From an uncultured delta proteobacterium (GTDB lineage Bacteria > Desulfobacterota > Desulfobacteria > Desulfobacterales > QNYZ01), in contig CAWANO010000010.1 in NCBI GenBank assembly GCA_963783425.1, positions 763,851-827,850 on the forward strand: DNA of 64,000 bases, written 5' to 3'. Within the stretch, counting starts at the first letter, position 1. Every line of letters begins with the position of its first letter. The notes under the pieces were generated by a model that was not told the origin of the DNA, searched no databases, and saw nothing but the letters and a program-made list of their open reading frames with translations. Position numbers and translations under genes: made by a program. Positions 1 through 52,945 of this stretch are shown here, one piece after another.

Positions 1-159
1 TTCGCCCAAAGCCGCCTCTTTGGCGCGCGCGGCCGTGGTGAGACGCTCCACTTTTGTCATGTAAGGTGAAATGACCCACTGAACGAGTATGAACACCAGC
101 AGGGCCGTTATGGCCGCAAAAACGCCCCATCGTTCGCGCCGGTTCAGCTGAAATCGCAC
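1..159 (-). CDS. GspM/PilO-like T2SS assembly protein, N-terminal fragment (gene runs off the window start)
   Basis: Not in the ORF track because it is open to the window edge. The reverse strand from GTG (159-157) reads VRFQLNRRERWGVFAAITALLVFILVQWVISPYMTKVERLTTAARAKEAALGE: a basic N-terminus plus one TM helix. It lies directly downstream of gspL, as in T2SS operons. Confidence 0.4.
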   Translation of the reverse strand, partial: MRFQLNRRERWGVFAAITALLVFILVQWVISPYMTKVERLTTAARAKEAALGE

Positions 160-229
160 CGGATCTCCTCTGCCGGAGGCACTATTGCAGTTTCAGTTAT
201 GGCCATGACCTGATTCAGGCTCCTTTTCT

Positions 230-1726
230 TTAGGACGTCGTCACTGCGCTGAAATTCACGCGAATCTTAAAGCGAACCTCATCGCCGTTTTTATTCATGT
301 TGGCAGCCGAAATTACGGCTGACTCGACCCAGGGTTGTCCGGCCAGGCGGTCGCGAATCTGATCGACGGTGTTAAAGGCACTGGTGGTACCGGTCAAGGT
401 CATATTATCCGGCCCCACGGTGACGTCGGTCAAGAGCAGTTTCCAGTCGGCAGGGAGGATGCGGCTGAGTTCGTTGATGATGTCCACTACACTCAGTCCG
501 CGCAACGTTAACAGGTCGCTGCTGGTTTCGGACAAGGCCGCGCTGATGTTGGACCGCATTTGTTGCAGGGGATCGACGATTCGTTTTACTTCCGGAAAGG
601 CCGTTTTGAACTCCTGTATGATCTGGCGGTCCAAACGTTCTACGCGTTGGTTGAGCACGTGAAGGTCTATCCAGGCATTAATACCCGACAGCACCAGAAC
701 CAGGCCGAGCAGCACCGCCGCCGCGGATAGAAAAGGGCGGTGTTCGTCCACCAGGCGCATGGCCCGGCCGTGTTGACGATGAAAATTGGGCACCTCCAGT
801 TGCTGCGACAGACAGAGGGCCAAGGCCAGGGCGTTGTCCATGGCCGCAGCGGGACTTTTGGCGTCATTGCCCGATGTTACCTGGTGCATCTGTATCAAGT
901 CCAGCGGCTGCAGCCTGAATTGGATGTCGTCTGAAAGCGATAGAGATCGCCCGGCCATGTCGTCAGGGACCTGGCCGCTGAAATAGCCCTGGCCGGGCAG
1001 GGCCTCGATTTCGCCGCGATCAAGCATCGCCGCCGTACTCAGCCGAATTTGCGCGGCCATGGCAGCCCAGGGGTCCAGGCCGCTGGCTGCAAAACGGAAA
1101 CTGCGAGTGGCCAGCACCTTTTGGGATTCGCAGACGAACAGGGTCCAAAAAGGTGGCGTGCCTGTCAGCAGCATGACTGTGGGTATAGTGTCATCCGTGT
1201 CATCCGAGGTGGGATGAGCTGGTTTCCGCGGGACAGTGGCAGCCGCCATAGGCCAGGCGCCTACGGTGACCAGCTCGGGCTCGATGGCAAACTCCGCCAG
1301 TGTCGTCATGCAATTGGCCAGCAGCGATTGGTCGATGGCGGCTGCAAGGACCGGCTGCGTGGCGCCCTTTTGCTTTTGCGTCAGCAGCAGGAAGTCCAAC
1401 GCCAGGGTGTCCGCCGCCACCGGCAAGGTCGCTTCGATCTCAAAGGGCAGGGCCTGCCGGATCTTGGCGCTGTTCCGAAACGGGAAATCGACTCGGCGGA
1501 TGTAAAAACGGTCGGCCGGAAGCGAGAGCGCCACTGCGGCGTCGCTGATATCGAGTTGGTTACAAAGAGCCCCGATCAGATGGCGCAGATCCTCTTCAAC
1601 GGTGGTGTGCTCTGACAGTGCGACCTGGGCCGTGGCTTTGATCTGAACTTTTTTCATGCCAGCACGAACCTGGACGGCATAGGCGTCGTCGTGGCGGATG
1701 TCGATTCCGATGATTCGAAGGCTCAT
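230..1726 (-). CDS. gspL: Type II secretion system protein GspL-like (PilM-like cytoplasmic domain + TM + PilN-like periplasmic domain)
   Basis: 498-aa ORF. The N-terminus (IGIDIRHDDAYAVQV) resembles the actin-like PilM/GspL fold. There is a central TM helix (FLSAAAVLLGLVLVLSGINAWI) and a C-terminal periplasmic domain. It overlaps the gspK stop by 4 nt. Confidence 0.65.
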   Translation of the reverse strand: MSLRIIGIDIRHDDAYAVQVRAGMKKVQIKATAQVALSEHTTVEEDLRHLIGALCNQLDISDAAVALSLPADRFYIRRVDFPFRNSAKIRQALPFEIEATLPVAADTLALDFLLLTQKQKGATQPVLAAAIDQSLLANCMTTLAEFAIEPELVTVGAWPMAAATVPRKPAHPTSDDTDDTIPTVMLLTGTPPFWTLFVCESQKVLATRSFRFAASGLDPWAAMAAQIRLSTAAMLDRGEIEALPGQGYFSGQVPDDMAGRSLSLSDDIQFRLQPLDLIQMHQVTSGNDAKSPAAAMDNALALALCLSQQLEVPNFHRQHGRAMRLVDEHRPFLSAAAVLLGLVLVLSGINAWIDLHVLNQRVERLDRQIIQEFKTAFPEVKRIVDPLQQMRSNISAALSETSSDLLTLRGLSVVDIINELSRILPADWKLLLTDVTVGPDNMTLTGTTSAFNTVDQIRDRLAGQPWVESAVISAANMNKNGDEVRFKIRVNFSAVTTS

Positions 1727-2862
1727 GGTTGTTCAAGCAGGTTTGTCATGCGGTTTTGGGCCGTTTCGGTCGTTTGAATGCGGCCGCCGTCGACCTGTCG
1801 GCTTAAAACGTGGCAATAGAATTTTCCGGTGGTCGGATTGTTCTTGCGTTCCGCGACCACCGTGATGCGCCTCCATGTTTCACCCATCTGGGCCGTGGCT
1901 TCGATGCGAAACAGATCGCTACGCGGTGTTAACAGTCGGGGATTAATGACAATTTGACCGCATCCGGGCGCTTCCTTATACCATGTTGGCGAGGAAAGGT
2001 CATGGATATAGTTTCCATCGTCGGTGGCGTCGCGGTATTCGACGATGGTTTCAGCCAGGTCGGCATGTTCCGCAGGTAGCAGTGCGGCGATCACCGGCAG
2101 TTCGGCGGTGTTGAGGTTGATTCTACCCCGGTATGTGAACTTTCCCGCTCGGGCAGCCGTCATGCCATGCACGGTGAGGTAGCGCTGCAGCCCCAACTTT
2201 TCATCGGCCCCCTGAAAAAGCTCATCGCTGATACCGCGCACCAGCCGCAATTCACTCAGGTCCTGGATGGGTCCGTTGCGGCAATCGTAAGGCGGATCCA
2301 GGTTGCGGTAATAATCATTCTCGGCGCCGTTAAGCCCGGTGATGGCGTCGCCGTCGTTAAAATCGAGCCAATCCTTCAGGGCACTGATGATGGTCAAGGG
2401 TTCGATCTGCTCTGAAAACTCCCGTCCAGCGGTCATCACCTCCATGAAACGGTTCCAAAGCACAAGCTGCTGCGGATTGTATTGCTGGCCGGCCGGGTAG
2501 AGCACCAAGGCGTTGACCTGAATCCGGGATAGTTCGTCGCTGATGCTAAAGCTGACGCTGCCTTGCTCAAATTGCAGCTCGGCGGCAAGTTCGGCCCGTT
2601 TTTCAGGGTCTGCCCAGGGCTCCTGGAGCGAATCGAGCTGGCTCTCGCGGGCATCTTTGACCAGCAGGGCCATGGCCGCCTGGATGCCGGCCTCGGCCAT
2701 CTGTTCGCCCATCAGCAAACGGGCGGTGGCATGGGCGGCGCTGTAGTAATGATAGACCTGACGGTGCTGCGTCAGGGTGACGGCCACCAACACGGTGATC
2801 ACCGACAAAGTGACCAGCAGGGCGATGCCGCGTTCATTTTTAAGCGGCTTAAGGAGTGTCAT
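1723..2862 (-). CDS. gspK: Type II secretion minor pseudopilin GspK
   Basis: 379 aa. N-terminal hydrophobic pseudopilin segment ERGIALLVTLSVITVLVAV, followed by a large periplasmic domain with an HhH-like segment (INLNTAELPVIAALLP). Position is between gspJ and gspL. Confidence 0.75.
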   Translation of the reverse strand: MTLLKPLKNERGIALLVTLSVITVLVAVTLTQHRQVYHYYSAAHATARLLMGEQMAEAGIQAAMALLVKDARESQLDSLQEPWADPEKRAELAAELQFEQGSVSFSISDELSRIQVNALVLYPAGQQYNPQQLVLWNRFMEVMTAGREFSEQIEPLTIISALKDWLDFNDGDAITGLNGAENDYYRNLDPPYDCRNGPIQDLSELRLVRGISDELFQGADEKLGLQRYLTVHGMTAARAGKFTYRGRINLNTAELPVIAALLPAEHADLAETIVEYRDATDDGNYIHDLSSPTWYKEAPGCGQIVINPRLLTPRSDLFRIEATAQMGETWRRITVVAERKNNPTTGKFYCHVLSRQVDGGRIQTTETAQNRMTNLLEQP

Positions 2863-2866
2863 TGCA

Positions 2867-3610
2867 CTAGGGTGTCGTCATGGCGGTGCGCGTTGTAGCA
2901 AGCGCAACGCGGGTTATCAGGGCCAGGCTCTCGGCGCCGTTGTTTAAGATCAAATCGATCTCGACGTTGACCGGGGTGGCAAAATCGGTGCTTTCATCAT
3001 CAGAGTTCCAAACGGACCGACTCTCTCCATCGGCATCGAAAAAGGAGAATTTCAACGACTCGAGATGGGTGCATAGCACCGGGTCCTCGGGTGCCGGCTC
3101 GAACTCGCCGAAGGGGTATAGCTGGTCGGCGCGGCGCAATATCATCCCGGAGCGACTTTCCTGGGTGTAATAGGTGATGCGGGCGGCACTGTATTCAAAT
3201 GGCCCTTGGCGGCTTTGGCCGATGTGGGCCCCGGAGACAAACTGCAGTTTGGGAAACTCCTCGCCGGCCAGGTATTGGGTTTCGGCCAGGAACCGGTAGG
3301 GGTCGGGGTCACTGGTGACGCCCGGCTTGGTGTAAGCGGTGGCACTGGTGACACGTAACTGTTTCAGGTCGTCGGCGATACGGTTCAGGCAGTATTGACC
3401 CATGCGGGCCAGGCGCATTTTTTGGGCGATGGGTTCGGTTTGGGTAAAAACGGCGTTAAACGACCCAAACAGCGTCACCATGATGACACTTAAAATAAAA
3501 ATGGCGATCAACAGCTCCACCAGGGTGAACCCGCTGGCGGTGGTAGTTGGTGCCACGGCGAAAGGCCCGGATTTTTGGGGCCCTATTGGTGTTGGGCTGG
3601 GCGTTCTCAT
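2867..3610 (-). CDS. gspJ: Type II secretion minor pseudopilin GspJ-like
   Basis: Prepilin-type N-terminal motif SG/FTLVELLIAIFILSVIM. Operon position is between gspI and gspK. The leader is unusually long, so the true start may be internal. Confidence 0.6.
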   Translation of the reverse strand: MRTPSPTPIGPQKSGPFAVAPTTTASGFTLVELLIAIFILSVIMVTLFGSFNAVFTQTEPIAQKMRLARMGQYCLNRIADDLKQLRVTSATAYTKPGVTSDPDPYRFLAETQYLAGEEFPKLQFVSGAHIGQSRQGPFEYSAARITYYTQESRSGMILRRADQLYPFGEFEPAPEDPVLCTHLESLKFSFFDADGESRSVWNSDDESTDFATPVNVEIDLILNNGAESLALITRVALATTRTAMTTP

Positions 3611-4002
3611 TGACTTTGGAGCAAGCGGTAGGTGCTTAGGGTAAAGTTTTTATCGGTGGCCGCGGTGCTGATTTCAACGTCGATGCGTGCCAGTTGTTCC
3701 TCGGTGCCCTCGAGGGCCTCGGACGCCATGATCGTCACCGTGGTACGCCAACGGTAAGCGGGGTGTTGGGGGTCGAAATCGCCCGTCTCTTCCCCTAAGC
3801 CGGCATCGTCAAGGACCGCCGGCAAGGCCGCGATTTTCTTCTGGGCCAGAAGGGGGGCGATAGACTGGAATTGGGTGGCCTCGGTTACGGATAAGGTCTG
3901 GGAGTGGAGCTTGTAGATGGCCAGCAGCACCGTGGCCAGTATCATCAGGGCAACCATCACCTCCAGCAGCGTAAAGCCGCGGTTATTGCCAGCGCTGGGC
4001 AT
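3607..4002 (-). CDS. gspI: Type II secretion minor pseudopilin GspI-like
   Basis: 131 aa. Prepilin motif NRG/FTLLEVMVALMILATVLL. The size is typical of GspI. Confidence 0.65.
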   Translation of the reverse strand: MPSAGNNRGFTLLEVMVALMILATVLLAIYKLHSQTLSVTEATQFQSIAPLLAQKKIAALPAVLDDAGLGEETGDFDPQHPAYRWRTTVTIMASEALEGTEEQLARIDVEISTAATDKNFTLSTYRLLQSQ

Positions 4003-4543
4003 AGGTTAAAAAACCCTCGAACTGGTCGACCGGGGTGAAAAAAGGCTCGATAAAAAGTGAGTATCGGTGATTGGGGTAGCGGGTCATGTGGAGCACGATC
4101 TGGTCGGCATAACCGTGGCGCGAAAAGCGGATGGCCACATCTTCGGCCCCATCCGATGGTTGCCGAGGTCGATGCACCTGGGCCACGCGGACACTGTCGG
4201 GCAGTACCAGTGCCTTTTCCAAGGCCTGCGTCAGGGCCAGTTCGTCCATCTCCGCGTGGCTCGACCACATGAGCTGCCGGGCCATGTCGACGTGCAAGAA
4301 ATAATCGCGCTGCTCGGCAACGGCCGCGGCCCGCAGCTTGGGTACCGTCAGCATCACCCAGCGTGAGACTTTTTTGGCGGGATCAGACAGAAAACCATCA
4401 TCAAGCCGCGGCGTAGCCCAGAAAAGCAGCATACCTATCAGAGCCATGACCACAATGAGTTCAATCAAGGTAAAACCTGAGGCTGCCCCTTTGGCCAGCG
4501 GCCGTGTGAGCGGTATGGCGGCCTTCGGTGCGAATGGGCTCAC
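3983..4543 (-). CDS. gspH: Type II secretion minor pseudopilin GspH-like
   Basis: Prepilin motif ASG/FTLIELIVVMALIGMLLF. The ORF track extends to 4666, overlapping gspG. A GTG at 4543-4541, immediately after the gspG stop (4547-4545), is the more likely start. Confidence 0.55.
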   Translation of the reverse strand: MSPFAPKAAIPLTRPLAKGAASGFTLIELIVVMALIGMLLFWATPRLDDGFLSDPAKKVSRWVMLTVPKLRAAAVAEQRDYFLHVDMARQLMWSSHAEMDELALTQALEKALVLPDSVRVAQVHRPRQPSDGAEDVAIRFSRHGYADQIVLHMTRYPNHRYSLFIEPFFTPVDQFEGFLTYAQRWQ

Positions 4544-4544
4544 G

Positions 4545-5006
4545 TTACTCGATATCCCAGTTGTTGATGTCGCTGTTTTCTTCTTCCCCGCCAGCAACGC
4601 CATCGGCGCCATAAGAGATAATATCGAATTCACTATTGGTGCCGGGGCTGAGGTAGACGAAGTCATTGCCCCAGGGGTCTTTGGGCAGGCGCCCTTTTTC
4701 CAGATAGCCGCCCGTACGCCAGTTCTGGGGTACGCGGCCGTACTCGGGGATAACCACCAGGGCGTTTAGCCCCTGTTCGGTGTCGGGATAGAAGCCGCTG
4801 TCGAGCTTGTAGAGCTTGAGGGCGGTTTCCAGGCTTTGGATCTGCATCTTGGCCTTAATACGCTTTGCCTCTTCGGGCCGGCTCATAATGCGCGGCACGA
4901 TCAGGCCCGCCAAAATCCCCAAAATGACGATTACCACCATCAGCTCTATCAGGGTAAACCCGCGCTCGGTCAAAATGGCCCTTTTGGCCAGCCTTTTTGC
5001 TCTCAT
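4545..5006 (-). CDS. gspG: Type II secretion major pseudopilin GspG
   Basis: 153 aa. Canonical GspG N-terminus [27 protein letters not shown] and C-terminal [16 protein letters not shown] motif. Confidence 0.9.
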
Positions 5007-5056
5007 AAACCTTATCCCGTCGTCATGCGTTGATTAAAAATAGAGTGTCACCATCT

Positions 5057-6283
5057 TCAGCCGATCAGCTGGTTCATTTCAAATATCGGCAAACAGATAG
5101 ACAACACGATAAAGCCGATGATCACTCCCATAACCAGAATCATCAGCGGTTCGAGCAGCGAGGCCAGTCCCACAATGCGGCTTTCGGCCTCCTGCTCGTA
5201 AATGGTGGAGACCTTCTCCAGCATCTCTTCCAGTTGGCCGCCCTGTTCGCCCACAGTGACCATTTGCACGGGCAGGCCGCTGAAATAGTCGTAGCGGGCG
5301 AGATGTTCACTCAAGCCGCCGCCCTTCCCCACCTCGACGGCCACCGAATCGATGGCATCGGCAATCAGGCTGTTGCCGGTCACATTTTTGGCAATGCCCA
5401 GGGCTGTGAGCATGGAGACCCCGTTTTCCAGCAGTGAGCCCAAAGTGCGCGTAAAGCGTGCCACGGCCAGCTTGCGTGTCAGGGGGGCCATGACCGGCAG
5501 CCGCAACCGCAGCTTGTCGATCATGTAACGGCCGCGGGCGCTACGCTTGGCGGCACTGAAGCCGATCGCACCCGCCAGCAGGGCCAGGGCGATCAACCAC
5601 CACCAGCGGCGGAAAATTTCGCTGACGGCGATCAGAAAGCGGGTGGGGGCCGGCAGGGCGCGGTTCATGTCGGTAAAGATCGAGGTGATATTGGGCACGA
5701 TAAAGGTCAGCAGCAAAAAAAGCACCAACACCCCGATCATGGCCATCAGCAATGGATAGATCAGGGCGGCGCGGATGCGGGTTTTGACCGCCTGCTGGCG
5801 CTCCATGATGTGGGCCAGGCGGTCGAGAACGATATCGAGATTGCCGGCCGATTCGCCCGAGCGCACCATGTTGATGTATACCGGCGAAAAGGTGCCGGGG
5901 AAAAGCTCCAGGGCTTGTGCAAAGCTGTTGCCTTCAACGATGGTGTCTTTGACCTTGGCCATGGTTTTTTTGAGCCGCGGCCGTCCGATGTGGGGCAAAA
6001 GGGCGTCAAAGGCCGACACCAGCGGAAAACCGGCCGCCACCAGGGTGGAGATCTGGCGGGTGATCACCGCCAGCTCCGCCGGGCGAATGCGGCCAATCAG
6101 GGCGGGCATGGCCCAGCGGCGCGGTTTTTTCAGCGAGTGGGCGTCGTGAACCTCTTTGACCGAAACGGGAAATAAGTGGGTGGTGCGCAGCCGTTGGCGT
6201 GCGGCCACGGCACTTTCGGCGTCGATGATCCCCGACGTGGTCTTGCCCCGTTGGTTGAGGGCGGCGTATTCGTAAACGGGCAT
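5057..6283 (-). CDS. gspF: Type II secretion / type IV pilus inner-membrane platform protein GspF/PilC family
   Basis: 408 aa. Duplicated T2SF-type cytoplasmic domains separated by TM helices. It ends with the typical ICLPIFEMNQLIG tail. Confidence 0.85.
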   Translation of the reverse strand: MPVYEYAALNQRGKTTSGIIDAESAVAARQRLRTTHLFPVSVKEVHDAHSLKKPRRWAMPALIGRIRPAELAVITRQISTLVAAGFPLVSAFDALLPHIGRPRLKKTMAKVKDTIVEGNSFAQALELFPGTFSPVYINMVRSGESAGNLDIVLDRLAHIMERQQAVKTRIRAALIYPLLMAMIGVLVLFLLLTFIVPNITSIFTDMNRALPAPTRFLIAVSEIFRRWWWLIALALLAGAIGFSAAKRSARGRYMIDKLRLRLPVMAPLTRKLAVARFTRTLGSLLENGVSMLTALGIAKNVTGNSLIADAIDSVAVEVGKGGGLSEHLARYDYFSGLPVQMVTVGEQGGQLEEMLEKVSTIYEQEAESRIVGLASLLEPLMILVMGVIIGFIVLSICLPIFEMNQLIG

Positions 6284-6341
6284 GGGGCGATAATATCAAA
6301 AGGTTATCGGCGACACAACCGCGAACCGCCTTCAAAAACTG

Positions 6342-6369
6342 TTGACACGGTTTTGGATCCCAATATACT
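6342..6369 (+). promoter_or_regulatory. Sigma-70-type promoter candidate for the lipoprotein gene
   Basis: TTGACA (6342-6347), 16-nt spacer, TATACT (6364-6369). Confidence 0.45.
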
Positions 6370-6416
6370 GATTCGCAATAAAATTCATGTGCTTACCCAT
6401 AAAAAAGGAAAAACCG

Positions 6417-7055
6417 GTGCGTAATAAAACAACTGGATGGGCAGGCCTTTTGATCCTGATCCTGGTGGTGGGATGTGGCTCGGAGTCGGGTATCGGCGGT
6501 GATGACAGTATCGGCGTCGAACTGACCGCTCACGACAACGGTACCGTTACCGGCGACGGTACCACCTCCATCGATGTCGTCAGGAGTGATTGTGAAACCG
6601 GCGGCGGTGAAGGTGCGGAATTGAGTGCCGAACCCTTTTTCGACACCCTGGGCAAGGCGCGCTTTACCTATTTCCCGCTGTGCACCGATTGCCCCGAGGG
6701 CGCCACCCAGGCCTACATTATCGATGGCTACACCGTGGCGTATATCCCGATTCAAAGCCCCGACGGCCGGGGCGGCTCTTTTTTACCGCCGGCACTGGTG
6801 AACCTCGACCAGAAGGTGCTCAGCCAGATCATCCTCTCGCGCGATTTTACCACGGTTGAACGCACTATTATCCTGATACCCATAGGCACCAAGAACGAAT
6901 ACCTGAATAAGGCCAGCGCCCGGGGAATAGCGGTTTCCAGCCTCTACAGCGTGCGTGTGACCTTTTTCGGCCGTAGCCGCACGGGGGGCGACTTCAGCCT
7001 GACCAGCACTCTGGAGCTCTCTTTCGGCAGCTACGACGCCTGCCAGGAACCGTAA
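6417..7055 (+). CDS. Hypothetical lipoprotein
   Basis: The ORF track starts at 6387. A GTG at 6417 preceded by AAGGA gives a textbook lipoprotein signal VRNKTTGWAGLLILILVVG/CGS. No recognisable domain follows. It is on the opposite strand to its flanking genes pilQ and gspF. Confidence 0.6.
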   Translation: MRNKTTGWAGLLILILVVGCGSESGIGGDDSIGVELTAHDNGTVTGDGTTSIDVVRSDCETGGGEGAELSAEPFFDTLGKARFTYFPLCTDCPEGATQAYIIDGYTVAYIPIQSPDGRGGSFLPPALVNLDQKVLSQIILSRDFTTVERTIILIPIGTKNEYLNKASARGIAVSSLYSVRVTFFGRSRTGGDFSLTSTLELSFGSYDACQEP

Positions 7056-7092
7056 CCTAGGTTATCCATACCAGTTACCGCCGGTGAAGGCC

Positions 7093-9753
7093 TTAAAAAG
7101 TGCTCCCGCTTGCGGGGCTGGCTTTAATCTTCTGCTGCTGGAGCTGTAGAATCTGGGGCGTGATAAAGATCAGCAGCTCCTCCTTGGTGTTGTCGTCGAT
7201 GCGGTTTTTGAAGAGCCAGCCCAGGATGGGGATCTTCGACAGCCATGGCAGCCCCGCCTCATCGACCCTTTCCCTGGTTTTTTTAATTCCGCCGATGACA
7301 ATGGTGTCGCCGTTTTCCATCAGAAATTCAGTTTCGGCTTCCTTGGTATTGAGAAACGGTACGCGCGACCCAAATTCATCCGCATCGGTAAATCCGGCGA
7401 TATCCTTCTTTTGCAGTTTGAGTCGCATGGACACGCGCCCGTCGGGGGTGATGTGCGGCGTGACCGTCAACTGAAGCTCAATCTCCTTGAATTTGACGGT
7501 GTCAATGGTGCTGCCGCCCGTGCTGATTCCTTCCCTGTAAGGATACTCAAGGCCCTGTTTGATAATGGCCTCCTGGTTGTCCATGGTAAGCACGCGCGGG
7601 GTGGAGATGATTTTGACATCCCCTTCGGCTTCCCTGGCGTAGAGCTGGGCGTCGAGCAAAAAGGGCGTGCCGAAAATACGCGCGAAATTGAATCCGGCGA
7701 CGGGCGCGTCCGGGGTGGGGAAGTTGATGGCCGTGTCCCAGCCGTAGGTGCCGCCGACCATGCTGAAGCCGCGCTGGGGGCCGATGCCGGCGCGCGGGTC
7801 GTCGTTGGGGATGCCGCCGAACATGCTCCAACTGATACCCAGCCCACGGTAAAACTCTGAAGAGGCCTCCACGATGCGCGCCTCGATCAGCACTTGGGGT
7901 GTGACCCGGTCGAGCTGTTCGACGATCTGCCTGGCGCGGGCGATGGTTACGGGTACATCGGTGAGAATCAGGATGTTGTTGCGGGCATCAACGCTGAGGG
8001 TGCCGCGGCCGGAGCCGTCCACATTCTTGGTGAGAATTGCTTCGATGTGGGTTTTGATGTCCTTGTCGGCATTGGCGTAATTGATGGTAATGTATTCGGT
8101 CACCAGATCAGCCTGCTGTTCGGCCAGTTGCTTGGCTTTAAGTTTAGCCGTGCGGGACTCACCTTCGGCGCGCAACGTCTCCTGAGTGGCGATGCGGATG
8201 ATGTTGCCTTCCAGGCGTTTGTCGAGCTGGTTCATTTTCAGCACCAGATCAAGCACCTGATCCCAGGGCACCGGTTTTTCCAGCGCCAACGTCACCCGAC
8301 CGGTGACATTCTTGTCAACGGCGAAATTGTCGCCGCTAACATCAGCCAGCACCCGAAACACGTTGCGGATATCGGTATCGTGAAAATTGAGGATCAGTTT
8401 TTCACCCGTATAGGTGGGGGCGCCGGCATCGGCTTTTGACGCCATGGCGGTTTCGGGGGGCGTAGACTCGGCCACGAATTTGTCGTCTGCTGGAGGGCCG
8501 GGCGCTGTTGGGGGCGTGCCGCTGGCCGTTGCATCAGCCGCAGGTGCGTTGCGTCCGGACGTTTCGAAGGTCAGCGTCAACAGATTTTGATTTTGATCGA
8601 CCAGGTAGGGTACCCGCCGGTTAAGGTGCACATCCACCCAGGTTTCGGTGGGTTCGGCGGTATTCTGACGGCTCTTGACGGCGCCCACAACCGCGCGAGC
8701 GGGCAAAGACCGGTCGGCGTCGGCGGCCAGGCGACTGTTTTGAAGATGCAAACGGACGAGATCGGGGTTGGGCCTTGTTACGCGATAATTCGCCGTTTGC
8801 GAGGTGCGTACCCGCACCTCAACCGGCCCGTCGCGCCGAGGACCGTAGTGCATGGACTCGACCGTGACCGGTGGCGGTGCGGTCTCGTGGTTGTTGATGG
8901 TGATTTGCAGCCCTTCGGCGTTAGTCTCGGCCCTGTAGCGCGACAGGTAGGACGTTTCGGTATCCAACACCAGACGCGTCTGGCGGTCCTGACCGAAATA
9001 GCGGATCTGGCTCAGTTGGGAGGTGTTGACGGGCATAACCTGCTCACCGCCAGCGGGCGGCGTCAATCCGTAGATGTCAAACACAATGCGCGGCGGATTG
9101 GCCAGGGTGAAACTGTCGAAGCGTTCGATGGGCCGCGAACTGCGCACCTGGACCCGCGTGGCCGTGGGCATGCTTTCGGTGGTGACGGACGACAGGCGTA
9201 GCGGAGCGGCAGGTTGGCCTTCGGGCAGAGCGCTGTCGGTTAACGCTGGTGTGGCGTCCGTCGCAGGTGCTGCCGTGCGCGACGCCCCTGGTTTGGGGAC
9301 CGAAATCACCAGGTTTCCGGCGACCTGATCGATGTCGTAGGGCGTGTCTGCCACCATCTCGACCATCAACTGAAGGGGCGCATCCGGGGTGGTGGCTTCT
9401 TCGATGGTCACACGGCTGATGTTGCCGGCACCGGCTGTCGGCATGGGTGCTTTGGCGGTCGAGCGTGTAGCGGGGAAGAAGAAGAGGATTGCCGGCGGAT
9501 CGGGCCGTTTGATGGCGGTAAACTCCAGGTTGGCGTCACTGGTGATGTGCAGCTGCTGGCTGTTTTGCGACTCGACCAAGGCGATGCCCTGGATGGTTTT
9601 CAAACCCGGTGCGGTGGCCACCAATGCTGCGGGCGCTTCGGCAGCCGGCGGCGGGGCCCCGGCGCACCCCCACAGCAGGCACACAAAGGTTGCTAAAGTG
9701 GTGATCAACGGCCAAGGAAAGCGGGGTCTCTGGTTACTGGACAGATGATTCAC
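7093..9753 (-). CDS. pilQ: Type IV pilus secretin PilQ (AMIN domains + secretin)
   Basis: N-terminal lipobox LLWGCAG. Repeated AMIN-like modules (e.g. RVQVRSSRPIERFDSFTLANPPRIVFDIYG). C-terminal secretin domain (VTPQVLIEARIVEAS, IPILGWLFKN). The ORF track begins at 9846; a GTG at 9753 just before the signal peptide is the more likely start. Confidence 0.85.
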   Translation of the reverse strand: MNHLSSNQRPRFPWPLITTLATFVCLLWGCAGAPPPAAEAPAALVATAPGLKTIQGIALVESQNSQQLHITSDANLEFTAIKRPDPPAILFFFPATRSTAKAPMPTAGAGNISRVTIEEATTPDAPLQLMVEMVADTPYDIDQVAGNLVISVPKPGASRTAAPATDATPALTDSALPEGQPAAPLRLSSVTTESMPTATRVQVRSSRPIERFDSFTLANPPRIVFDIYGLTPPAGGEQVMPVNTSQLSQIRYFGQDRQTRLVLDTETSYLSRYRAETNAEGLQITINNHETAPPPVTVESMHYGPRRDGPVEVRVRTSQTANYRVTRPNPDLVRLHLQNSRLAADADRSLPARAVVGAVKSRQNTAEPTETWVDVHLNRRVPYLVDQNQNLLTLTFETSGRNAPAADATASGTPPTAPGPPADDKFVAESTPPETAMASKADAGAPTYTGEKLILNFHDTDIRNVFRVLADVSGDNFAVDKNVTGRVTLALEKPVPWDQVLDLVLKMNQLDKRLEGNIIRIATQETLRAEGESRTAKLKAKQLAEQQADLVTEYITINYANADKDIKTHIEAILTKNVDGSGRGTLSVDARNNILILTDVPVTIARARQIVEQLDRVTPQVLIEARIVEASSEFYRGLGISWSMFGGIPNDDPRAGIGPQRGFSMVGGTYGWDTAINFPTPDAPVAGFNFARIFGTPFLLDAQLYAREAEGDVKIISTPRVLTMDNQEAIIKQGLEYPYREGISTGGSTIDTVKFKEIELQLTVTPHITPDGRVSMRLKLQKKDIAGFTDADEFGSRVPFLNTKEAETEFLMENGDTIVIGGIKKTRERVDEAGLPWLSKIPILGWLFKNRIDDNTKEELLIFITPQILQLQQQKIKASPASGSTF

Positions 9754-10354
9754 TGGGCTCCGGCTCCTCTTGGGTGTCGTATTGTAGTTGTAAATCCCGG
9801 TGATGTTCGTCGACGCGTCCGTCGCTGCGCTCGGTTTGCTCAACAACGATGACGCGGTCTTTTAGAATCTGAGCCACGCGCCCGCCGCGTAGGCCCAAAT
9901 GGGTCCCGATCTCGACAATATGGCCCTTTCCGTCACTCTCTTCGAGCAGGGCTTTGGGTTCCCCGCGGCTCCGAAATGTGGAGGTGAGTTTGAGTTGGTC
10001 GAGAGCGATGGTCTCAAGGGCCGTCTGGGGAGAGCGGCGGCGATAGCGCGGTTCTGATGCCGTTAGCGGATCGGCCTCTGATTCCACTAGAGGGACGAAG
10101 GGGTCGCGCCTGGCTGAAAAGGCGGGCCCTTGCTGACGCGGTAGCATCAGGGCATTGGGGTGGCTCAGACTATTTTGACTAGCGCTCTGGTGTGTCGGAT
10201 TTTGGGGTTTGTGCTTAACTGGTTCGGCCAGCTGGTTGGTGGCCGGCGCCGTCGTCGGGGTGGCCGTCTGTGTGCTGTCACCGCACCCGATCAAGAGCGC
10301 CCCCACCAGAAACACTCCCCAAAAGTGTCCCGTGATCTTGGCCCGTGCTGTCAT
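9734..10354 (-). CDS. pilP: Type IV pilus assembly lipoprotein PilP-like
   Basis: Lipobox LLIGCGDS, a low-complexity linker and a C-terminal beta-domain (GHIVEIGTHLGLRGGRVAQILKDRVIV). Position is between pilO and pilQ. Confidence 0.6.
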   Translation of the reverse strand: MTARAKITGHFWGVFLVGALLIGCGDSTQTATPTTAPATNQLAEPVKHKPQNPTHQSASQNSLSHPNALMLPRQQGPAFSARRDPFVPLVESEADPLTASEPRYRRRSPQTALETIALDQLKLTSTFRSRGEPKALLEESDGKGHIVEIGTHLGLRGGRVAQILKDRVIVVEQTERSDGRVDEHHRDLQLQYDTQEEPEPSESSVQ

Positions 10355-10980
10355 GAGGCTGTCTCCTCAGGGCGATTTTGAGTGGCGGTGTCGTCAAATT
10401 TATAGGTAACCGCCCGGCAGTCAACCTTGAGCCACCCGCTGATCGGGTCTGGCGCCATGGTGATGGTGTCGATGTTGACCACGCGTGGCAGGTTCGCCAC
10501 CGATTCGAAAAAGCGGCCCACGCCGCCGAAGCTGCCCGTTACACTGATCTTGATGGGAATCTCGGCGTAGAAAGTGAAATCCGTCGCCGGCTGCGGCTCA
10601 AAGAGCAGAAATTCGAGCCCGGCCGCCTTTCCGGCATCGCTGATACTGGCCAGCAGCGATGGAATTTCATCACTGGAGGGCAGCGCTTGCAAGGCGTGGT
10701 TGAATGCAGCCTCCACCCGACGGGCCAGCTGTTCGGTCTCGTCGGCCCGTTCGGCTTTGCGCTTGAGCAGATCAAGCTGCGCCGACAATACCTTTTGATC
10801 GCTCTGCAGAGCGCGGAGCTGCAAGTTCTTGGGCAGATAGGAAAGCCAGGCAAAGAGCAGCATCGGCAGCAGCACGCCCAGTAGGGCCATGAGCAGGCGC
10901 TGCCAGCGCGGTATGGTAAAATAGCGTTCGGTCAGGCTGTCGATGCGCCCCGTCGATGGGGTATCGTGGTTAAAGACCAT
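10351..10980 (-). CDS. pilO: Type IV pilus assembly protein PilO
   Basis: 209 aa. Single TM (LLMALLGVLLPMLLFAWLSYL), a coiled-coil segment and a ferredoxin-like C-terminal domain. Synteny is pilN-pilO-pilP. Confidence 0.7.
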   Translation of the reverse strand: MVFNHDTPSTGRIDSLTERYFTIPRWQRLLMALLGVLLPMLLFAWLSYLPKNLQLRALQSDQKVLSAQLDLLKRKAERADETEQLARRVEAAFNHALQALPSSDEIPSLLASISDAGKAAGLEFLLFEPQPATDFTFYAEIPIKISVTGSFGGVGRFFESVANLPRVVNIDTITMAPDPISGWLKVDCRAVTYKFDDTATQNRPEETAS

Positions 10981-10982
10981 AA

Positions 10983-11567
10983 TCAGGTCCCACCGTCGGG
11001 CCTTACGTCCGTAGCGCTCGGCTCCGGTTGCCAGTTGCAGCCGATGGCAAAGGCTTTGAGGTGTGTATCAGCGTTGAATGTTTGGCGCTTGAGCAATTTC
11101 AACCCCACCGTCGCAAACAGGGGCGATTTTTCGAGCCGGGTTAAAAAATCGGCCACGGTTTTTTCATCCATGGCCACACCGCTGATCTCAACCCCCGTGG
11201 CGCTGCTCGTCAGGCTCGTCAACCACATGCGCTCCGATATGAGATTGGCGGAGACATCGTTGAGCAACGCCACCGGTCGGAAGCGCCCCTGTTCGAGGCC
11301 GCCGATAATGGCCATCTTCTGTTTCAAAATCCGGGCCTTCTCCTGATTGGCCGTCACCTGACGGTTCATTTGGTGGTAGGCTGTCACCTGCTGGCGGATA
11401 TGCTCGCTTTCGGTCGTGAGCTGTTTGATGTGTCCGGTCAGGTGAAGGTGGTATCCCACCAGGGCCGTCAGCAAGAGAGCCATGGTTGCGGCGGCAACCG
11501 TCAGCATCCGTTTGAAACCAAGCCTGGATTGATATTGACGATAGGGCAGCAAGTTGATGCGGATCAT
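10983..11567 (-). CDS. pilN: Type IV pilus assembly protein PilN
   Basis: N-terminal MIRINLLPYRQ motif, a TM helix and a coiled coil. It overlaps the pilM stop by 4 nt. Confidence 0.75.
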   Translation of the reverse strand: MIRINLLPYRQYQSRLGFKRMLTVAAATMALLLTALVGYHLHLTGHIKQLTTESEHIRQQVTAYHQMNRQVTANQEKARILKQKMAIIGGLEQGRFRPVALLNDVSANLISERMWLTSLTSSATGVEISGVAMDEKTVADFLTRLEKSPLFATVGLKLLKRQTFNADTHLKAFAIGCNWQPEPSATDVRPDGGT

Positions 11568-12619
11568 TTGTCGTTGGCCCTCCGTAAAGCCAGACCGACG
11601 CTGATAGCCGCTTGGGGGGCAACGCCACGAATGGTGCGGGTGTCGAATCGGTCGGTTTTGATCACGATGGGTCCAAATGGATCGAGCAGGTCAATTTCTA
11701 TGCCGGTTTCCAGCGCCAGCTGCTGCCTGAAGACCGGCACGTTAGCGCCACCGCCGCTCAAGTAGATGTGAGTGATGGGTTGGGTGGCGTAGCTGTTGCT
11801 GTAAATCTTCACGGTTTGGCCGATTTCGGTGCACCAGCGGTTGGTAATGTCCAGCTCGAGGCGGTAGAACTGGTCCGTGGCGATGCCGCGGGCGCTGTCG
11901 CCGAATTTGATGCGTTGCGCCTCGGCCTCGCTACAGCCCTGCTGCTGGGCGATGCGCTGGTCGATTTGCCGGCAGCCGAAAGGCAGGTTGCGGCTAAACA
12001 GCGGCAGCCCGTCCTGCACGACGCAAAAAAGGGTGCTTTGGGCGCCAATATCGATCAGAGCCACCGTCTCCTTAGCGTGAGGGTGGCCCTGATAGAAGCT
12101 GTTTTGAAGAGCGAAAAGGTCCACATCCACGATGCACGCTTTTAAATTGGCCGCCGCGGTGGCCTGCAGGTAAGCGTTGATGGTCTCTTTTTTGGCCGCT
12201 ACCACCAAAATGTCCATCAAGTGCGGGTTAACGGGGTGGTCGCCGATGACGTGAAAATCGATGTTGACCTCTTCGAGGCCGAAGGGGATGTGATGCTCGC
12301 TCTCCAGCAAGACTCGTTCGTAAAGATAGTCATCGGCGCTTTTTTCAAGAGCGATGGTCTCTTTGACGACCGTCTGGCTGTTTAGGGCCAGCGCCACTTG
12401 ACGGGTTTTGAAATCGTAGCGCTGAAAGAGCTCACTCAAGGCATCGGAAAGATGGGCCATATTGGCAACGGCCCCCTGTTCGATGGTGCCGGTTGGCAGT
12501 TCGAGATGGCCGTATTGGCTTAAGGTATGGCCTCTTTTTAACGGCGTCAGCTCGACCGCCTTGATGACTGCCGAGCCGATGTCTAAACCGACGATTTGTT
12601 GTTTTTGACGGAACGGCAT
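11564..12619 (-). CDS. pilM: Type IV pilus assembly ATPase-fold protein PilM
   Basis: 351 aa. Actin-like fold motifs IVGLDIGSAVIKAVEL and ALIDIGAQSTLF. It heads the pilMNOPQ operon. Confidence 0.85.
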   Translation of the reverse strand: MPFRQKQQIVGLDIGSAVIKAVELTPLKRGHTLSQYGHLELPTGTIEQGAVANMAHLSDALSELFQRYDFKTRQVALALNSQTVVKETIALEKSADDYLYERVLLESEHHIPFGLEEVNIDFHVIGDHPVNPHLMDILVVAAKKETINAYLQATAAANLKACIVDVDLFALQNSFYQGHPHAKETVALIDIGAQSTLFCVVQDGLPLFSRNLPFGCRQIDQRIAQQQGCSEAEAQRIKFGDSARGIATDQFYRLELDITNRWCTEIGQTVKIYSNSYATQPITHIYLSGGGANVPVFRQQLALETGIEIDLLDPFGPIVIKTDRFDTRTIRGVAPQAAISVGLALRRANDK

Positions 12620-12863: not shown

Positions 12864-14315
12864 TTGATCATGTCCCCCAAAAGCGATCAGATTAAGCATG
12901 AGAAGCCGTTTCGCCTGGTCAAGGCCTTCACGGCCTCCAGTCTTCTGCTGATATTTATAGGAACGGTGGTCATTAGCGCCATGAACATCCGTTACGCCCG
13001 CCGTATTCAGCTGGAAAAAAGCAAGGAGTATGCCCTGGCGCTGGTGGAAAACCTCAACCACCAGGTTTTTCTGCAGTTCATCGTGCCCGTGGCCTTGCGC
13101 TATGGGCGTATCCAGTTGCGCGAGCCCGATCAGTTCGAGCGTCTGGACAAAGTGGTGCGCGCCACTTTGCACAGTTTTAAGATTGACGCAGTCCATATCT
13201 TCGACATGAGCGGCACCGTTTCCTACAGCTTCGACCAGGCCTTGATCGGCAAGACGGATCTGGGCGGACAAGGCTATCAGCGTGCCCTGGAGGGCTATCC
13301 CAACTCGGTTCTCAAGCAAATCGGCAGCTTTTGGCAGATCTATCTGGGCATTCCCAAAAAGAGCCTGATGGTGACCTTTGCGCCTTTGCGGGCGGAAAAG
13401 CTGCTGTCGACCATCTCCGGGCCGGTGGTGGGCGTGGTTGAGATCGTGCAGGACATCACTGAAGAGTATCGGCGTATCTCTCACTACCAGACCCTGATCA
13501 TCGCCACCAGCGCCCTGGTCATGGGGGTGCTCTTTTTCGCGTTACGCTTCATGGTCAAACGTGGCGAGGAGATCATTGAACAAAGGGCGCTGGAGCGCTT
13601 GCGGCTCGAAGAGCAGCTGGCCCGTGCCAAGCACTTTTCGTCACTGGGCGAAATGACCGCCGGCATTTCACACGAGATCCGCAACCCGTTGGGTATCATT
13701 CGCAGCTCGGCGGATCTGCTGGCCAAAAAAATGGCTCAACTGGAGCCGGGCAACCAGATCCCGGCGGTTATCGTGGAAGAGACTCGGCGTCTAGACAACA
13801 TCATTACCGATTTTCTTAACTATGCACGGCCGCGTCCGCCCAATCTGACCAACTGCCAGGTGATCGAGGTGATCGAGAAGAACCTCGATTTTCTCAAGCC
13901 GCAGTTGATGGCCAGGGGTTACACGGTTATCAAGGATTTCAGTGAGCCGTTGCCAACGGTGATGGCCGATACCGACATGCTCTATCAGGCCTTTTTGAAC
14001 ATCTTAATCAATGCCATGCAGGCCATGCCCGACGGCGGCGTGATTCGCATCCGCGCCATGTTGCAGGGCCGTCTGGTGGTGATCTGTTTCGATGACGAGG
14101 GTCAGGGGGTGGCCGAGGAACAGATGGAAAAGGTGCTCGATCCTTTTTTCACCACCAAACCCAAAGGCAGCGGTTTGGGGCTTGGCATCGTCAAGAACAT
14201 CATCGAGGTACACGAAGGCGAACTGCGCCTATCAAACCGCACCGCCGGCGGCTTGCGGGTCGAAGTGCGGCTGCCATCACAAGCCGAATTCGCCATTGGG
14301 CAAGATCAGCTTTGA
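12864..14315 (+). CDS. Sensor histidine kinase (two TM segments, HisKA + HATPase_c)
   Basis: H-box GISHEIRNPL; N/G boxes NILINAMQAM, DDEGQGV, GSGLGLGIV. Two TM helices flank a roughly 170-aa extracytoplasmic region. Alternative ATG start at 12870. Confidence 0.85.
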   Translation: MIMSPKSDQIKHEKPFRLVKAFTASSLLLIFIGTVVISAMNIRYARRIQLEKSKEYALALVENLNHQVFLQFIVPVALRYGRIQLREPDQFERLDKVVRATLHSFKIDAVHIFDMSGTVSYSFDQALIGKTDLGGQGYQRALEGYPNSVLKQIGSFWQIYLGIPKKSLMVTFAPLRAEKLLSTISGPVVGVVEIVQDITEEYRRISHYQTLIIATSALVMGVLFFALRFMVKRGEEIIEQRALERLRLEEQLARAKHFSSLGEMTAGISHEIRNPLGIIRSSADLLAKKMAQLEPGNQIPAVIVEETRRLDNIITDFLNYARPRPPNLTNCQVIEVIEKNLDFLKPQLMARGYTVIKDFSEPLPTVMADTDMLYQAFLNILINAMQAMPDGGVIRIRAMLQGRLVVICFDDEGQGVAEEQMEKVLDPFFTTKPKGSGLGLGIVKNIIEVHEGELRLSNRTAGGLRVEVRLPSQAEFAIGQDQL

Positions 14316-14322
14316 GGAAAAA

Positions 14323-15705
14323 ATGGAAACGGTTCTAATCGTAGACGATGAGAAAAACTACCCGCCTGTCATCAGCGCTGTTTTGCAGGAAGAAGGGTAT
14401 GAAACACTTATGGCCAACAGCGGCCAGGAGGCACTGGAGGTGTTGCGGAAAAACGAAGTGGCGCTAGTGTTGACTGACATGAAAATGCCTGTCATGGACG
14501 GCATGGCCTTGCTGGAGAAAATCAAATCCAAGGATCCCGACCTGCCCGTGATGATGATGACGGCCTTCGGTACTGTGGAAAAGGCGGTGGAGGCTATGCA
14601 AAAGGGGGCCTACAATTACATTCTGAAGCCGTTCGACAACCAGCAGCTCATCGCCTATGTCAACCGGGCCGTGGCCCACTACCAGATCGTGCGTGAAAAC
14701 CGCAGCCTCCGCAACGCTTTTCGCGAGCGTTACAGCTTCGGCAACATCATTGGCCGCAGCAAACCGATGCAGGCGGTATTCGAGCTGATCCGCAAAGTGG
14801 CCCCGGCCAGCGCCTCGGTGCTGATCGAGGGCGAAAGCGGCACCGGCAAGGAGCTGGTGGCCAAATCGATTCACTACAACAGCCCCCGCCACGACAAGTC
14901 CTTTGTGGCCGTTAACTGCTCGGCCTTGGCTGAAACTCTGCTGGAGAGCGAACTTTTCGGTCATGAAAAGGGGGCTTTCACCGGCGCCGTGGCCACCAAG
15001 AAGGGGCGCTTCGAGCTGGCTACGGGCGGCACCCTCTTTCTGGACGAAATCGGTGAGTTGTCACCCAACCTGCAGGTCAAGCTGTTGCGGGTGTTGCAGG
15101 AAAAGCGCATCGAACGAGTGGGCGGGGTCCAATCACTGGATGTGGATATTCGGCTTCTGGCGGCCACCAATAAAGATCTCAAGAAAGAAATCGCCGCCGG
15201 GCGCTTCCGGGAAGATTTATATTATCGATTGAATGTGGTCTATATCGGCATGCCGCCGCTTCGCGTTCGAAGTGAAGATATTCCACTGCTCGTGCAGCAT
15301 TTTATCAAGAAATATGCCAGCGAACGGACCGCCGCCGAGGCGGTCACGGGCATCGACCAGGATGTGGCGCGCCTTTTTTATGAGTACCCCTGGCCCGGTA
15401 ATGTGCGTGAGCTGGAGAATGTAATCGAACGGGCCATCATCCTAGCGCCGCAGGCCTTGATAAAGGTCTCGGACCTACCCCGGGAGTTTCGGCAAAACGC
15501 CTATCAAAGCCTCGATCTGGAAGATATCCCGGAAAACGCCAAGCTCTACGACACCCTGGCCATGGTCGAACAGATGATGATCCAGCGGGCTTTGCGGCTC
15601 TCCGGTAATGTTCAAGCCCGGGCGGCCGAGCTGCTGGGTATCGGCAAAAGCGGCCTCAACCAGAAAATTAAGAAGTTTGGACTTGATCTTAGCGACAGGC
15701 GCTGA
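14323..15705 (+). CDS. Sigma-54-dependent response regulator (NtrC/PilR family; REC + AAA+ + Fis HTH)
   Basis: The ORF track begins inside the kinase gene. The real start is ATG 14323 (METVLIVDDE). Walker A GESGTGKE, GAFTGA loop (HEKGAFTGA) and a C-terminal HTH (RAAELLGIGKSGLNQKIKKFG). Confidence 0.9.
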   Translation: METVLIVDDEKNYPPVISAVLQEEGYETLMANSGQEALEVLRKNEVALVLTDMKMPVMDGMALLEKIKSKDPDLPVMMMTAFGTVEKAVEAMQKGAYNYILKPFDNQQLIAYVNRAVAHYQIVRENRSLRNAFRERYSFGNIIGRSKPMQAVFELIRKVAPASASVLIEGESGTGKELVAKSIHYNSPRHDKSFVAVNCSALAETLLESELFGHEKGAFTGAVATKKGRFELATGGTLFLDEIGELSPNLQVKLLRVLQEKRIERVGGVQSLDVDIRLLAATNKDLKKEIAAGRFREDLYYRLNVVYIGMPPLRVRSEDIPLLVQHFIKKYASERTAAEAVTGIDQDVARLFYEYPWPGNVRELENVIERAIILAPQALIKVSDLPREFRQNAYQSLDLEDIPENAKLYDTLAMVEQMMIQRALRLSGNVQARAAELLGIGKSGLNQKIKKFGLDLSDRR

Positions 15706-36154: not shown

Positions 36155-36184
36155 ATAATCCCCTTTTTGCGTCGGCAGCGTTAC

Positions 36185-36865: not shown

Positions 36866-36923
36866 GTTGCCTCCTGTCGTGCCGCTTGGGTGTCAGTCGA
36901 AGTTGAGCGCCTTCCGGTTGCGC

Positions 36924-41818: not shown

Positions 41819-41820
41819 TA

Positions 41821-51401: not shown

Positions 51402-51416
51402 GTTTGTTCCCCCTTC

Positions 51417-52730: not shown

Positions 52731-52945
52731 TTGTGTAACCTCCATTAATCGTTATTAATTATCCTTGTTTTGCTCCAAAAGCCCCGCTGTGTATCGGTGG
52801 GTCCGTCACCTCCTCTCGAATAAACTTTTATCCTTAGATTGTGGTCTATATGTCGAAACTGTCAGCGCCATTTTTGGCGATGATATCGGTTACACAAAGC
52901 AGATTCGCCACAATTTGGCGGTCATTTTGGCCAACGGATCCCACT

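Follow-up and report, generated by a model that had tools for sequence, protein, structure and literature searches.

An apparently incomplete type II secretion operon beside pilMNOPQ in an uncultured delta proteobacterium continues beyond the edge of the analysed DNA

Can a pseudopilus machine that seems to have no secretin, no ATPase and no GspC of its own be served by the secretin of a neighbouring type IV pilus (T4P)? This question is raised by a 64-kb stretch of contig CAWANO010000010.1 from an uncultured delta proteobacterium (hereafter the window, meaning the whole stretch of DNA analysed), in which the pilMNOPQ genes of a type IVa pilus (T4aP) and the gsp genes of a type II secretion system (T2SS) lie next to each other on one strand. 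A sequence-only reading placed pilM, pilN, pilO, pilP and pilQ, an opposite-strand lipoprotein gene, gspF to gspL and the start of gspM at the left end of the window, and all of them are confirmed at these places, the pil genes and gspF to gspL with Pfam and NCBIfam support (Table 1). The same reading stated that the window holds no GspD, GspE or GspC and that PilQ is its only secretin, which is borne out by tblastn searches and a Pfam survey of the open reading frames (ORFs): no second secretin, GspE/PilB-type ATPase or GspC was found in the 64 kb, and tblastn queries (GspC, GspD and GspE, the last as three full-length proteins) matched only PilQ in the window, with 24% identity to GspD. Two explanations had been offered, either a T2SS-like operon without its own secretin, ATPase and GspC that borrows PilQ, or an operon that has its ATPase and secretin genes to the left of the window. 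The second has proved correct, as the absence is an edge effect of a window boundary that falls inside gspM, and the locus very probably holds two separate, ordinary envelope machines side by side, namely the T4aP pilMNOPQ operon and a complete, single-locus T2SS.

The decisive evidence comes from L001, a 16,520-nt Logan contig from run ERR11523668 that was found by an exact-protein look-up of GspL (loci and contigs are designated by L numbers throughout). L001 overlaps positions 1-11696 of the window with 5 mismatches and 0 indels, position 1 of the window corresponding to position 11696 of L001. Beyond this point, still on one strand, come gspM, gspN, gspC, gspD and the start of gspE, with neighbouring genes that overlap or are no more than 18 nt apart; the stretch from the rest of gspM through the gspE start occupies 11538-16520 of L001, and gspD is found some 2.1 kb to the left of the window. 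The operon seems incomplete because the window stops inside gspM. The part of gspM that lies in the window encodes a short cytoplasmic tail and a transmembrane (TM) helix, as expected for GspM, and is a 100% tblastn match to the GspM of L001. Furthermore, the exact GspM, GspC and GspD proteins of L001 are recorded on a 1,091,574-nt NCBI/ENA contig, the source contig, which also carries the exact GspL, GspF, lipoprotein and DsrB-like proteins of the window, together with a GspN of the same 90% cluster as that of L001. An ordinary T2SS that merely lies next to a T4P operon had been named as the reading to adopt if gspC, gspD and gspE were found immediately left of position 1, and this is where they are, on L001 and, in the case of the exact GspC and GspD, on the source contig. 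Inspection of the left flank thus yielded gspC, gspD and the start of gspE on L001; a prepilin peptidase, which had been sought there as well, was not found on that contig. The T2SS accordingly has its own GspD, its own GspC with HR and PDZ domains, an AsmA-like GspN and a gspE ATPase gene.

Inside the window, the gsp genes have the features that are expected of a T2SS assembly platform and pseudopilus. GspG, called bona fide in the sequence-only reading, passes its NCBIfam model and carries the cleavage-methylation motif TERG|FTLIELMVV. GspH, GspI and GspJ carry G|FTL(I/L/V)E, and GspK has G|IALL without the glutamate at position 5. GspL matches PF12693 GspL_C as well as PilN, PilM_2 and T2SSL, and scores 72.4 bits on TIGR01709 against a cut-off of 65; PilM, PilQ, GspG and GspL are the proteins of the window that pass NCBIfam equivalog or subfamily cut-offs. 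The PilM-like N-terminal and PilN-like C-terminal domains of GspL reflect the usual homology of the two systems and are not evidence of sharing. Alignment proteins of two kinds, PilM/N/O and GspL/M, are present, as had been noted, and this is what two separate machines would give. Within each of the two operons the genes overlap or are separated by gaps of at most 70 nt.

The pil operon is equally well defined. It begins with pilM, the first gene of a T4aP alignment and secretin operon, and its five genes overlap or abut; PilM, PilN, PilO and PilP each match their own Pfam family, and PilQ (with the start codon taken as called on L001) bears an AMIN domain. PilQ passes the TIGR02515 IV_pilus_PilQ model with 380.9 bits against a cut-off of 284 and fails the GspD model, on which it reaches 231.5 bits against 351. 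No pilB, pilT, pilC, pilA or pilD was found within the window by the Pfam survey of ORFs and tblastn. Divergently upstream of pilM lie a histidine kinase gene (12864-14315, plus strand) and a gene for a sigma54-dependent response regulator (14092-15705, plus strand), which are PilS/PilR-like by position and have their best NCBIfam matches, below the cut-offs, among AtoS/AtoC/NtrC-like proteins. As listed, these two ORFs overlap by 224 nt, which suggests that the regulator starts further downstream. The sigma54 promoter consensus gave 87 matches where 92 are expected by chance, none of them upstream of pilM or gspF.

Table 1. Features of the pil and gsp loci in the window and on L001, with the homologs of the intervening lipoprotein gene in relatives
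Feature	Sequence	Position	Strand	Product and evidence
pilM	window	11564..12619	minus	351 aa; PF11104 PilM_2 E=3.6e-63; TIGR01175 193.7 bits, cut-off 133
pilN	window	10983..11567	minus	194 aa; PF05137 PilN E=3.8e-14; 4-nt overlap with pilM
pilO	window	10351..10980	minus	209 aa; PF04350 PilO E=1.5e-36
pilP	window	9734..10354	minus	206 aa; lipoprotein, lipobox LIGC; PF04351 PilP E=4.7e-14
pilQ	window	7093..9753	minus	886 aa; secretin; AMIN + GspD_N0 + Secretin_N + Secretin
lipoprotein gene	window	6417..7055	plus	212 aa; lipobox LVVGC; between pilQ and gspF
gspF	window	5057..6283	minus	408 aa; inner-membrane platform, first T2SS gene; PF00482 T2SSF, two stretches, E=5.7e-62
gspG	window	4545..5006	minus	153 aa; major pseudopilin; PF08334 T2SSG E=7.1e-41; TIGR01710 180.8 bits, cut-off 88.85
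gspH-like	window	3983..4543	minus	186 aa from GTG start; minor pseudopilin; N_methyl motif
gspI	window	3607..4002	minus	131 aa; minor pseudopilin; N_methyl E=2.4e-9
gspJ	window	2867..3610	minus	247 aa; minor pseudopilin; N_methyl; ATGA overlap with gspI
gspK	window	1723..2862	minus	379 aa; minor pseudopilin; PF21687 T2SSK_1st E=1.3e-13 (passes)
gspL	window	230..1726	minus	498 aa; PilM-like cytoplasmic domain + TM + PilN/GspL_C periplasmic domain
gspM, first 53 codons	window	1..159	minus	GTG start at 159; gene cut by window edge
gspM	L001			176 aa; PF04612 and NF040576 below threshold
gspN	L001			281 aa; TIGR04411 GspN 141.3 bits, cut-off 50
gspC	L001	12911-13825		304 aa; NF041515 GspC_delta 211.9 bits, cut-off 150; PF11356 T2SSC E=2.1e-16 + PDZ
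gspD	L001	13839-15884		681 aa; TIGR02517 533.7 bits, cut-off 351.35; N0 + 3 Secretin_N + Secretin
gspE, start	L001	15903-16520		206-codon ORF cut by contig end; MshEN domain; directly after gspD
lipoprotein homolog	L009	4390-5007
lipoprotein homolog	L034	4238-4819
lipoprotein homolog	L043	780-1370
lipoprotein homolog	L089	9261-9923
lipoprotein homolog	L091	4329-5060

The organization of relatives agrees with the continuation seen on L001. The window organism has no close GspL relative among the species representatives of the Genome Taxonomy Database (GTDB): a scan with GspL as a single sequence found no relative, and a scan with an alignment of GspL homologs, in which the best identity was 32%, identified relatives in 321 species. 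The 80 best loci were examined; they all belong to Desulfobacterales, Desulfobacteraceae, Desulfatitalea, Desulfonema, Desulfocapsa and similar groups, their GspL identities range from 26 to 32%, and a tblastn census found the same gene order throughout. Conservation of the order in Desulfobacterales, proposed as a check by the sequence-only reading, is confirmed in that gspC, gspD and gspE lie downstream of gspL in 39 of the 40 loci with at least 6.5 kb of downstream flank. The single exception is L057 (CP070768.1, Desulfobacterales bacterium bin239), in which only J-K-L matched and no gspM, gspN, gspC, gspD or gspE was found downstream of gspL; its four 100-nt masked runs cannot account for the missing genes. 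The order G-H-I-J-K-L-M-N-C-D-E is found in each of five relatives for which genes were called and Pfam domains assigned, usually with yidD and a TPR gene after gspE. In three of these five gspF precedes gspG, in L002 it is missing upstream, and in L007 it is inverted downstream of gspE. F-G-H-I-J-K-L-M-N-C-D-E is therefore the standard order of the Desulfobacterales relatives. No paper describing this gene order or the pil/gsp adjacency was found in literature searches, and the gspF/pilin cluster of a paper on cable bacteria (PMC10580974) is unrelated.

Some of the relatives have peculiarities of their own. In L007 (ERZ27262694 k141_49920), a distant relative, the gene in the GspG position (4783-7329) encodes an 848-aa protein whose pseudopilin domain is preceded by a fused DUF5122 region, and near it lies a gene (189-3869) whose product, 1226 aa long, shows a faint MtrC/MtrF-like domain match. 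The GspD proteins of L004 (13783-16155), L005 (13778-16048) and L006 (13779-16106), 756-790 aa in length, have a C-terminal SPOR (peptidoglycan-binding) domain, which the 681-aa GspD of the window organism does not have.

How the neighbouring pil operon is to be understood can be judged from the same loci. Among the 23 loci with more than 4 kb of upstream flank, pilQ lies upstream of gspF in three (L009, L025 and L034), and L091 likewise has pilQ, the gene for the lipoprotein and gspF side by side; in three relatives ribF-def-fmt-rsmB occupies the place upstream of the gsp operon instead of pilQ. L009, L025 and L034, together with L043 and L091, are the closest relatives, and their identities in F, H, I, K, C and D are consistently higher, so the pilQ synteny is explained by shared ancestry and the pilMNOPQ neighbourhood is mostly not meaningful. 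The proposal that a pseudopilus machine made of GspF to GspM, without a secretin, ATPase and GspC, uses the adjacent AMIN-domain PilQ as its outer-membrane channel could draw on PilQ being the only secretin of a window that lacks GspE- and GspC-like genes, and on the recurrence of the pilQ-lipoprotein-gspF arrangement in L009, L025, L034 and L091. It is nevertheless refuted, since gspC, gspD and the start of gspE directly follow gspM-gspN on L001, the source contig encodes the exact GspC and GspD, this GspD passes the GspD equivalog model that PilQ fails, the relatives with the pilQ adjacency have C, D and E of their own, and most relatives have the same T2SS with no pilQ nearby. A weaker form of coupling, in which the adjacency is functional within the sub-clade through co-regulation or through a shared lipoprotein that acts as a pilotin for one or both secretins, is consistent with the fact that pilQ, the lipoprotein gene and gspF stay together in the window/L001 and in L009, L025, L034 and L091, the loci with the highest identity to the window Gsp proteins, and with the conservation of the lipoprotein itself. 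It is improbable all the same: in L089/L090 the lipoprotein gene keeps to gspF while its other neighbour is a formate-tetrahydrofolate ligase gene and not pilQ, 20 of the 23 loci, from more distant relatives, have no pilQ upstream, the orientation of the lipoprotein gene differs between relatives, and in the window it is antisense to both operons, which makes read-through unlikely. Moreover, its predicted fold, in a low-confidence model, is a generic beta-sandwich unlike known pilotins, and shared ancestry alone can explain the synteny. The pil and gsp operons are inferred to be separate transcription units.

The reading of two ordinary machines, one of them a complete T2SS, has its own difficulties, and the observations that weigh against it can be considered together. 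Several subunits fall short of curated cut-offs, which were trained mainly on Proteobacteria: GspF scores 419.7 bits on TIGR02120, 4 bits short of the cut-off of 424; TIGR01708 GspH is the top named match of GspH but stays below its cut-off; GspI reaches 33 bits on TIGR01707, under the cut-off of 44, with PilV marginally higher; GspJ reaches 25.5 bits on PF11612 T2SSJ, just under the cut-off of 28, and is below the NCBIfam cut-off too; GspK reaches 113 bits on NF037980, below 130; and GspM has sub-threshold scores of 19 bits on PF04612 and 25 bits on NF040576. A prepilin peptidase gene (Peptidase_A24) was found neither in the window nor on L001, nor in the loci of 21 kb inspected in five relatives. 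In addition, gspE of this organism is known as 206 in-frame codons on L001 and as a 209-aa fragment, P0113, and not at full length; P0113 is the only gspE product recorded on the 1.09-Mb source contig, and gspE in the source assembly contains at least five frameshifts within about 630 nt. As to the subunits, GspF scores 304-317 bits on PilC models with a cut-off of 700, which makes the GspF model by far the best relative to the cut-offs, and tblastn shows GspH to be 28-36% identical to the H-position gene of relatives. GspJ is 36-38% identical to their J, GspI has syntenic homologs in them, and GspM is 33-37% identical to M-position genes, some of which match T2SSM. The putative GspH and GspI are assigned to their families by position and faint matches, with N_methyl as the sole Pfam model matched. 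Prepilin peptidases are often encoded elsewhere and shared with T4P, for example PilD/XcpA of P. aeruginosa, so the missing gene does not argue against T2SS membership, and the peptidase, which is inferred to be encoded elsewhere, is probably the one component that the pilus and the T2SS share.

The state of gspE bears on whether the T2SS can be powered. The gene content could be complete and gspE a true pseudogene in this organism, with a machine that is defunct or run by another ATPase of the GspE/PilB family, and this would fit the frame-shifted ends of P0113 as the sole gspE product of its contig, as well as a second small contig (P0061, 747 nt) that also has a frameshift in the gspE N-terminal region. 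We regard this as quite improbable. L001, with 5 mismatches in 11,696 positions shared with the window, keeps gspE in frame where P0113 shifts, and a concentration of at least five indels plus substitutions in about 630 nt, beside 11.7 kb without an indel, looks like a badly resolved patch of the assembly, at a place where L001 ends too; such a pattern does not resemble decay in a near-identical strain. The other eleven genes of the gsp operon are all intact, and so is the 577-aa gspE of a relative at 90-95% protein identity. That relative's GspE, P0168, was reached by an indirect route, as a search with the 206-aa fragment returned mostly partial proteins and the intact protein emerged via its cluster. 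It directly follows the 3' end of a gspD with 95.5% identity, and its sequence contains the Walker A motif GPTGSGKT and the tetracysteine motif CxxC...CxxC. The gspE ORF of L001 is 90% identical to the N-terminus of P0168 and aligns to residues 1-208 of full-length, T2SSE-domain GspE proteins of syntenic relatives with 41-48% identity (E~1e-53). In P0113, residues 11-178 are in frame with GspE residues 138-305; three further pieces, namely residues 1-10, an internal stretch reading PTIPAPRS and the tail, match translations of the L001 gspE DNA in other frames. The possibility that P0113 is a second, paralogous gspE was therefore rejected, as its frame-shifted ends reproduce alternative frames of the same locus. 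Most likely, the frameshifts of P0113 reflect an assembly that is poorly resolved or varies between strains at this place, and not gene decay.

The lipoprotein gene between pilQ and gspF deserves separate consideration. It is convergent with pilQ, across a gap of 37 nt, and divergent from gspF, whose start lies 133 nt from the lipoprotein start at 6417. The protein has no Pfam or NCBIfam match, only 12 homologs were found in a collection of 5.8 billion proteins, and identity within the GTDB loci is 42-53%. In every context recovered (window/L001, L009, L025, L034, L043, L089/L090 and L091) the gene adjoins gspF, from which it is divergent in the window, L034, L043, L089 and L091 and with which it is co-directional in L009 and L025. 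A sigma70-like TTGACA-16-TATACT element lies upstream of it at 6342-6369 on the plus strand, and a terminator scan between pilQ and gspF gave nothing above chance. The lipobox cysteine is followed by GSESGIG in the window protein, and C-GS..G is invariant in the alignment. An AlphaFold2 model from the 12-sequence alignment is poor (pLDDT 58.7, pTM 0.58), and in a Foldseek search of this model against the Protein Data Bank (PDB) no match reached E<=0.001, the hits being generic beta-sandwiches of the ApaG type; no function is assigned from so uncertain a fold and such unspecific matches.

What makes this lipoprotein of interest is its position as a neighbour of gspF in a system that bears GspN, which has recently been tied to T2SS-dependent export of surface lipoproteins. 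PulA of Klebsiella and InvL of Acinetobacter baumannii are T2SS-dependent surface lipoproteins, and a G/S-rich sorting motif has been reported in Acinetobacter for those that depend on GspN (PMC12802150). The window locus likewise encodes GspN and has a conserved lipoprotein gene beside the gsp operon, and the G/S-rich residues after its lipobox resemble the sorting motif described there. The window protein has no sequence similarity or confident structural similarity to PulA or InvL, and lipoproteins in general often have G/S-rich tethers behind the lipobox, so that the likeness is a lead and not a claim of membership. Judged from its sequence and gene neighbourhood, the lipoprotein could be a dedicated T2SS partner, either a GspN-dependent surface-lipoprotein cargo or a new secretin accessory or pilotin, and this is put forward as a tentative and rather unlikely suggestion.

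The sequence-only reading had also remarked on unusually long leaders before the G/F cleavage site of GspH and GspJ, of which one stood and the other did not. The 64-residue leader of GspH is an overcalled start, which results when an ATG far upstream, with a 122-nt overlap with gspG, is taken as the start codon, and from the GTG at 4543, right after the gspG stop, the leader is 23 residues long. The leader of GspJ has 27 residues, as is typical of the clade, and that of GspG has 16 residues. In relatives (L009, L012, L013, L025, L034 and L043) the leaders of GspH, GspI and GspJ have about 20-27 residues and those of GspG about 10-20, the H/I/J leaders being alike in length and unlike in sequence. 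Gamma-proteobacterial pseudopilins typically have short leaders, and the H/I/J leaders here are longer. A length of 20-27 residues for these three leaders appears to be a clade trait, not an artefact, and a minor curiosity.

According to the Pfam survey, the remaining ORFs of the window are genes of housekeeping and energy metabolism, with recN, carAB, tatC, genes resembling glutamate synthase and metF/hdr, a dsrAB-like pair and two transposase genes, and Rfam and tRNA scans of the window gave no match. At 35207-38243 metF, DUF5981, CCG and 4Fe-4S genes form a MetFV/HdrBC-like set, and at 50256-52745 two adjacent NIR_SIR proteins are dsrAB-like, one of them clustering with 'sulfite reductase beta subunit'; the dsrAB-like pair and the MetFV/HdrBC-like set are both signs of a sulfate-reducing host from the Desulfobacterota. 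The patch of lowest GC content (0.49-0.52 versus about 0.58) holds genes for an HTH-domain protein and a DDE_Tnp_1_4 transposase (40750-43312), probably an insertion sequence.

If the two machines are ordinary, their mode of action can be outlined from established family knowledge, with secretion activity and operon structure predicted from the sequence. PilM, PilN, PilO and PilP would make up the alignment subcomplex of the T4aP beneath the PilQ secretin, and PilQ would serve the pilus and not the pseudopilus. In the T2SS, the pseudopilus would assemble on the GspF/GspL/GspM platform, with GspE powering the polymerisation of GspG and a complex of GspH, GspI, GspJ and GspK capping the tip. GspC would connect the platform to GspD, through which folded periplasmic substrates would be pushed out. 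A T2SS without secretin and ATPase that shares a T4P secretin would have been a surprise, and it was an artefact of the window cut. What remains is a standard Desulfobacterales-type T2SS beside a standard pilMNOPQ operon, which is of value for annotation and holds no surprise.

To conclude, both machines can be set against known systems. The gamma-proteobacterial T2SS has the gene order C-D-E-F-...-N, of which the order in the window organism is a circular permutation. Compared with the canonical T2SS of Proteobacteria (Gsp/Pul/Xcp/Eps), the locus has the same core set, namely C, D, the E gene, F, G, H/I/J/K, L, M and N, and is without a gspO/prepilin peptidase gene. It represents the Desulfobacterota ('delta') variant, for which NCBI curated models already exist in the case of GspC (NF041515 GspC_delta) and GspN (TIGR04411). 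The pil operon shows no notable difference from pilMNOPQ of Pseudomonas aeruginosa and Myxococcus xanthus, as its five genes are the same and identically ordered, with stop and start codons that overlap, and it has a PilQ in which AMIN lies upstream of N0 and the secretin domain. In general, T4aP genes are distributed over several loci and T2SS genes occupy one locus (PMC6668835). A pil locus that lies apart from the genes for motor ATPases, platform and pilin is typical of T4aP, and a single packed locus with the pseudopilins in the middle is common to the canonical T2SS and to the T2SS described here (PMC6668835).

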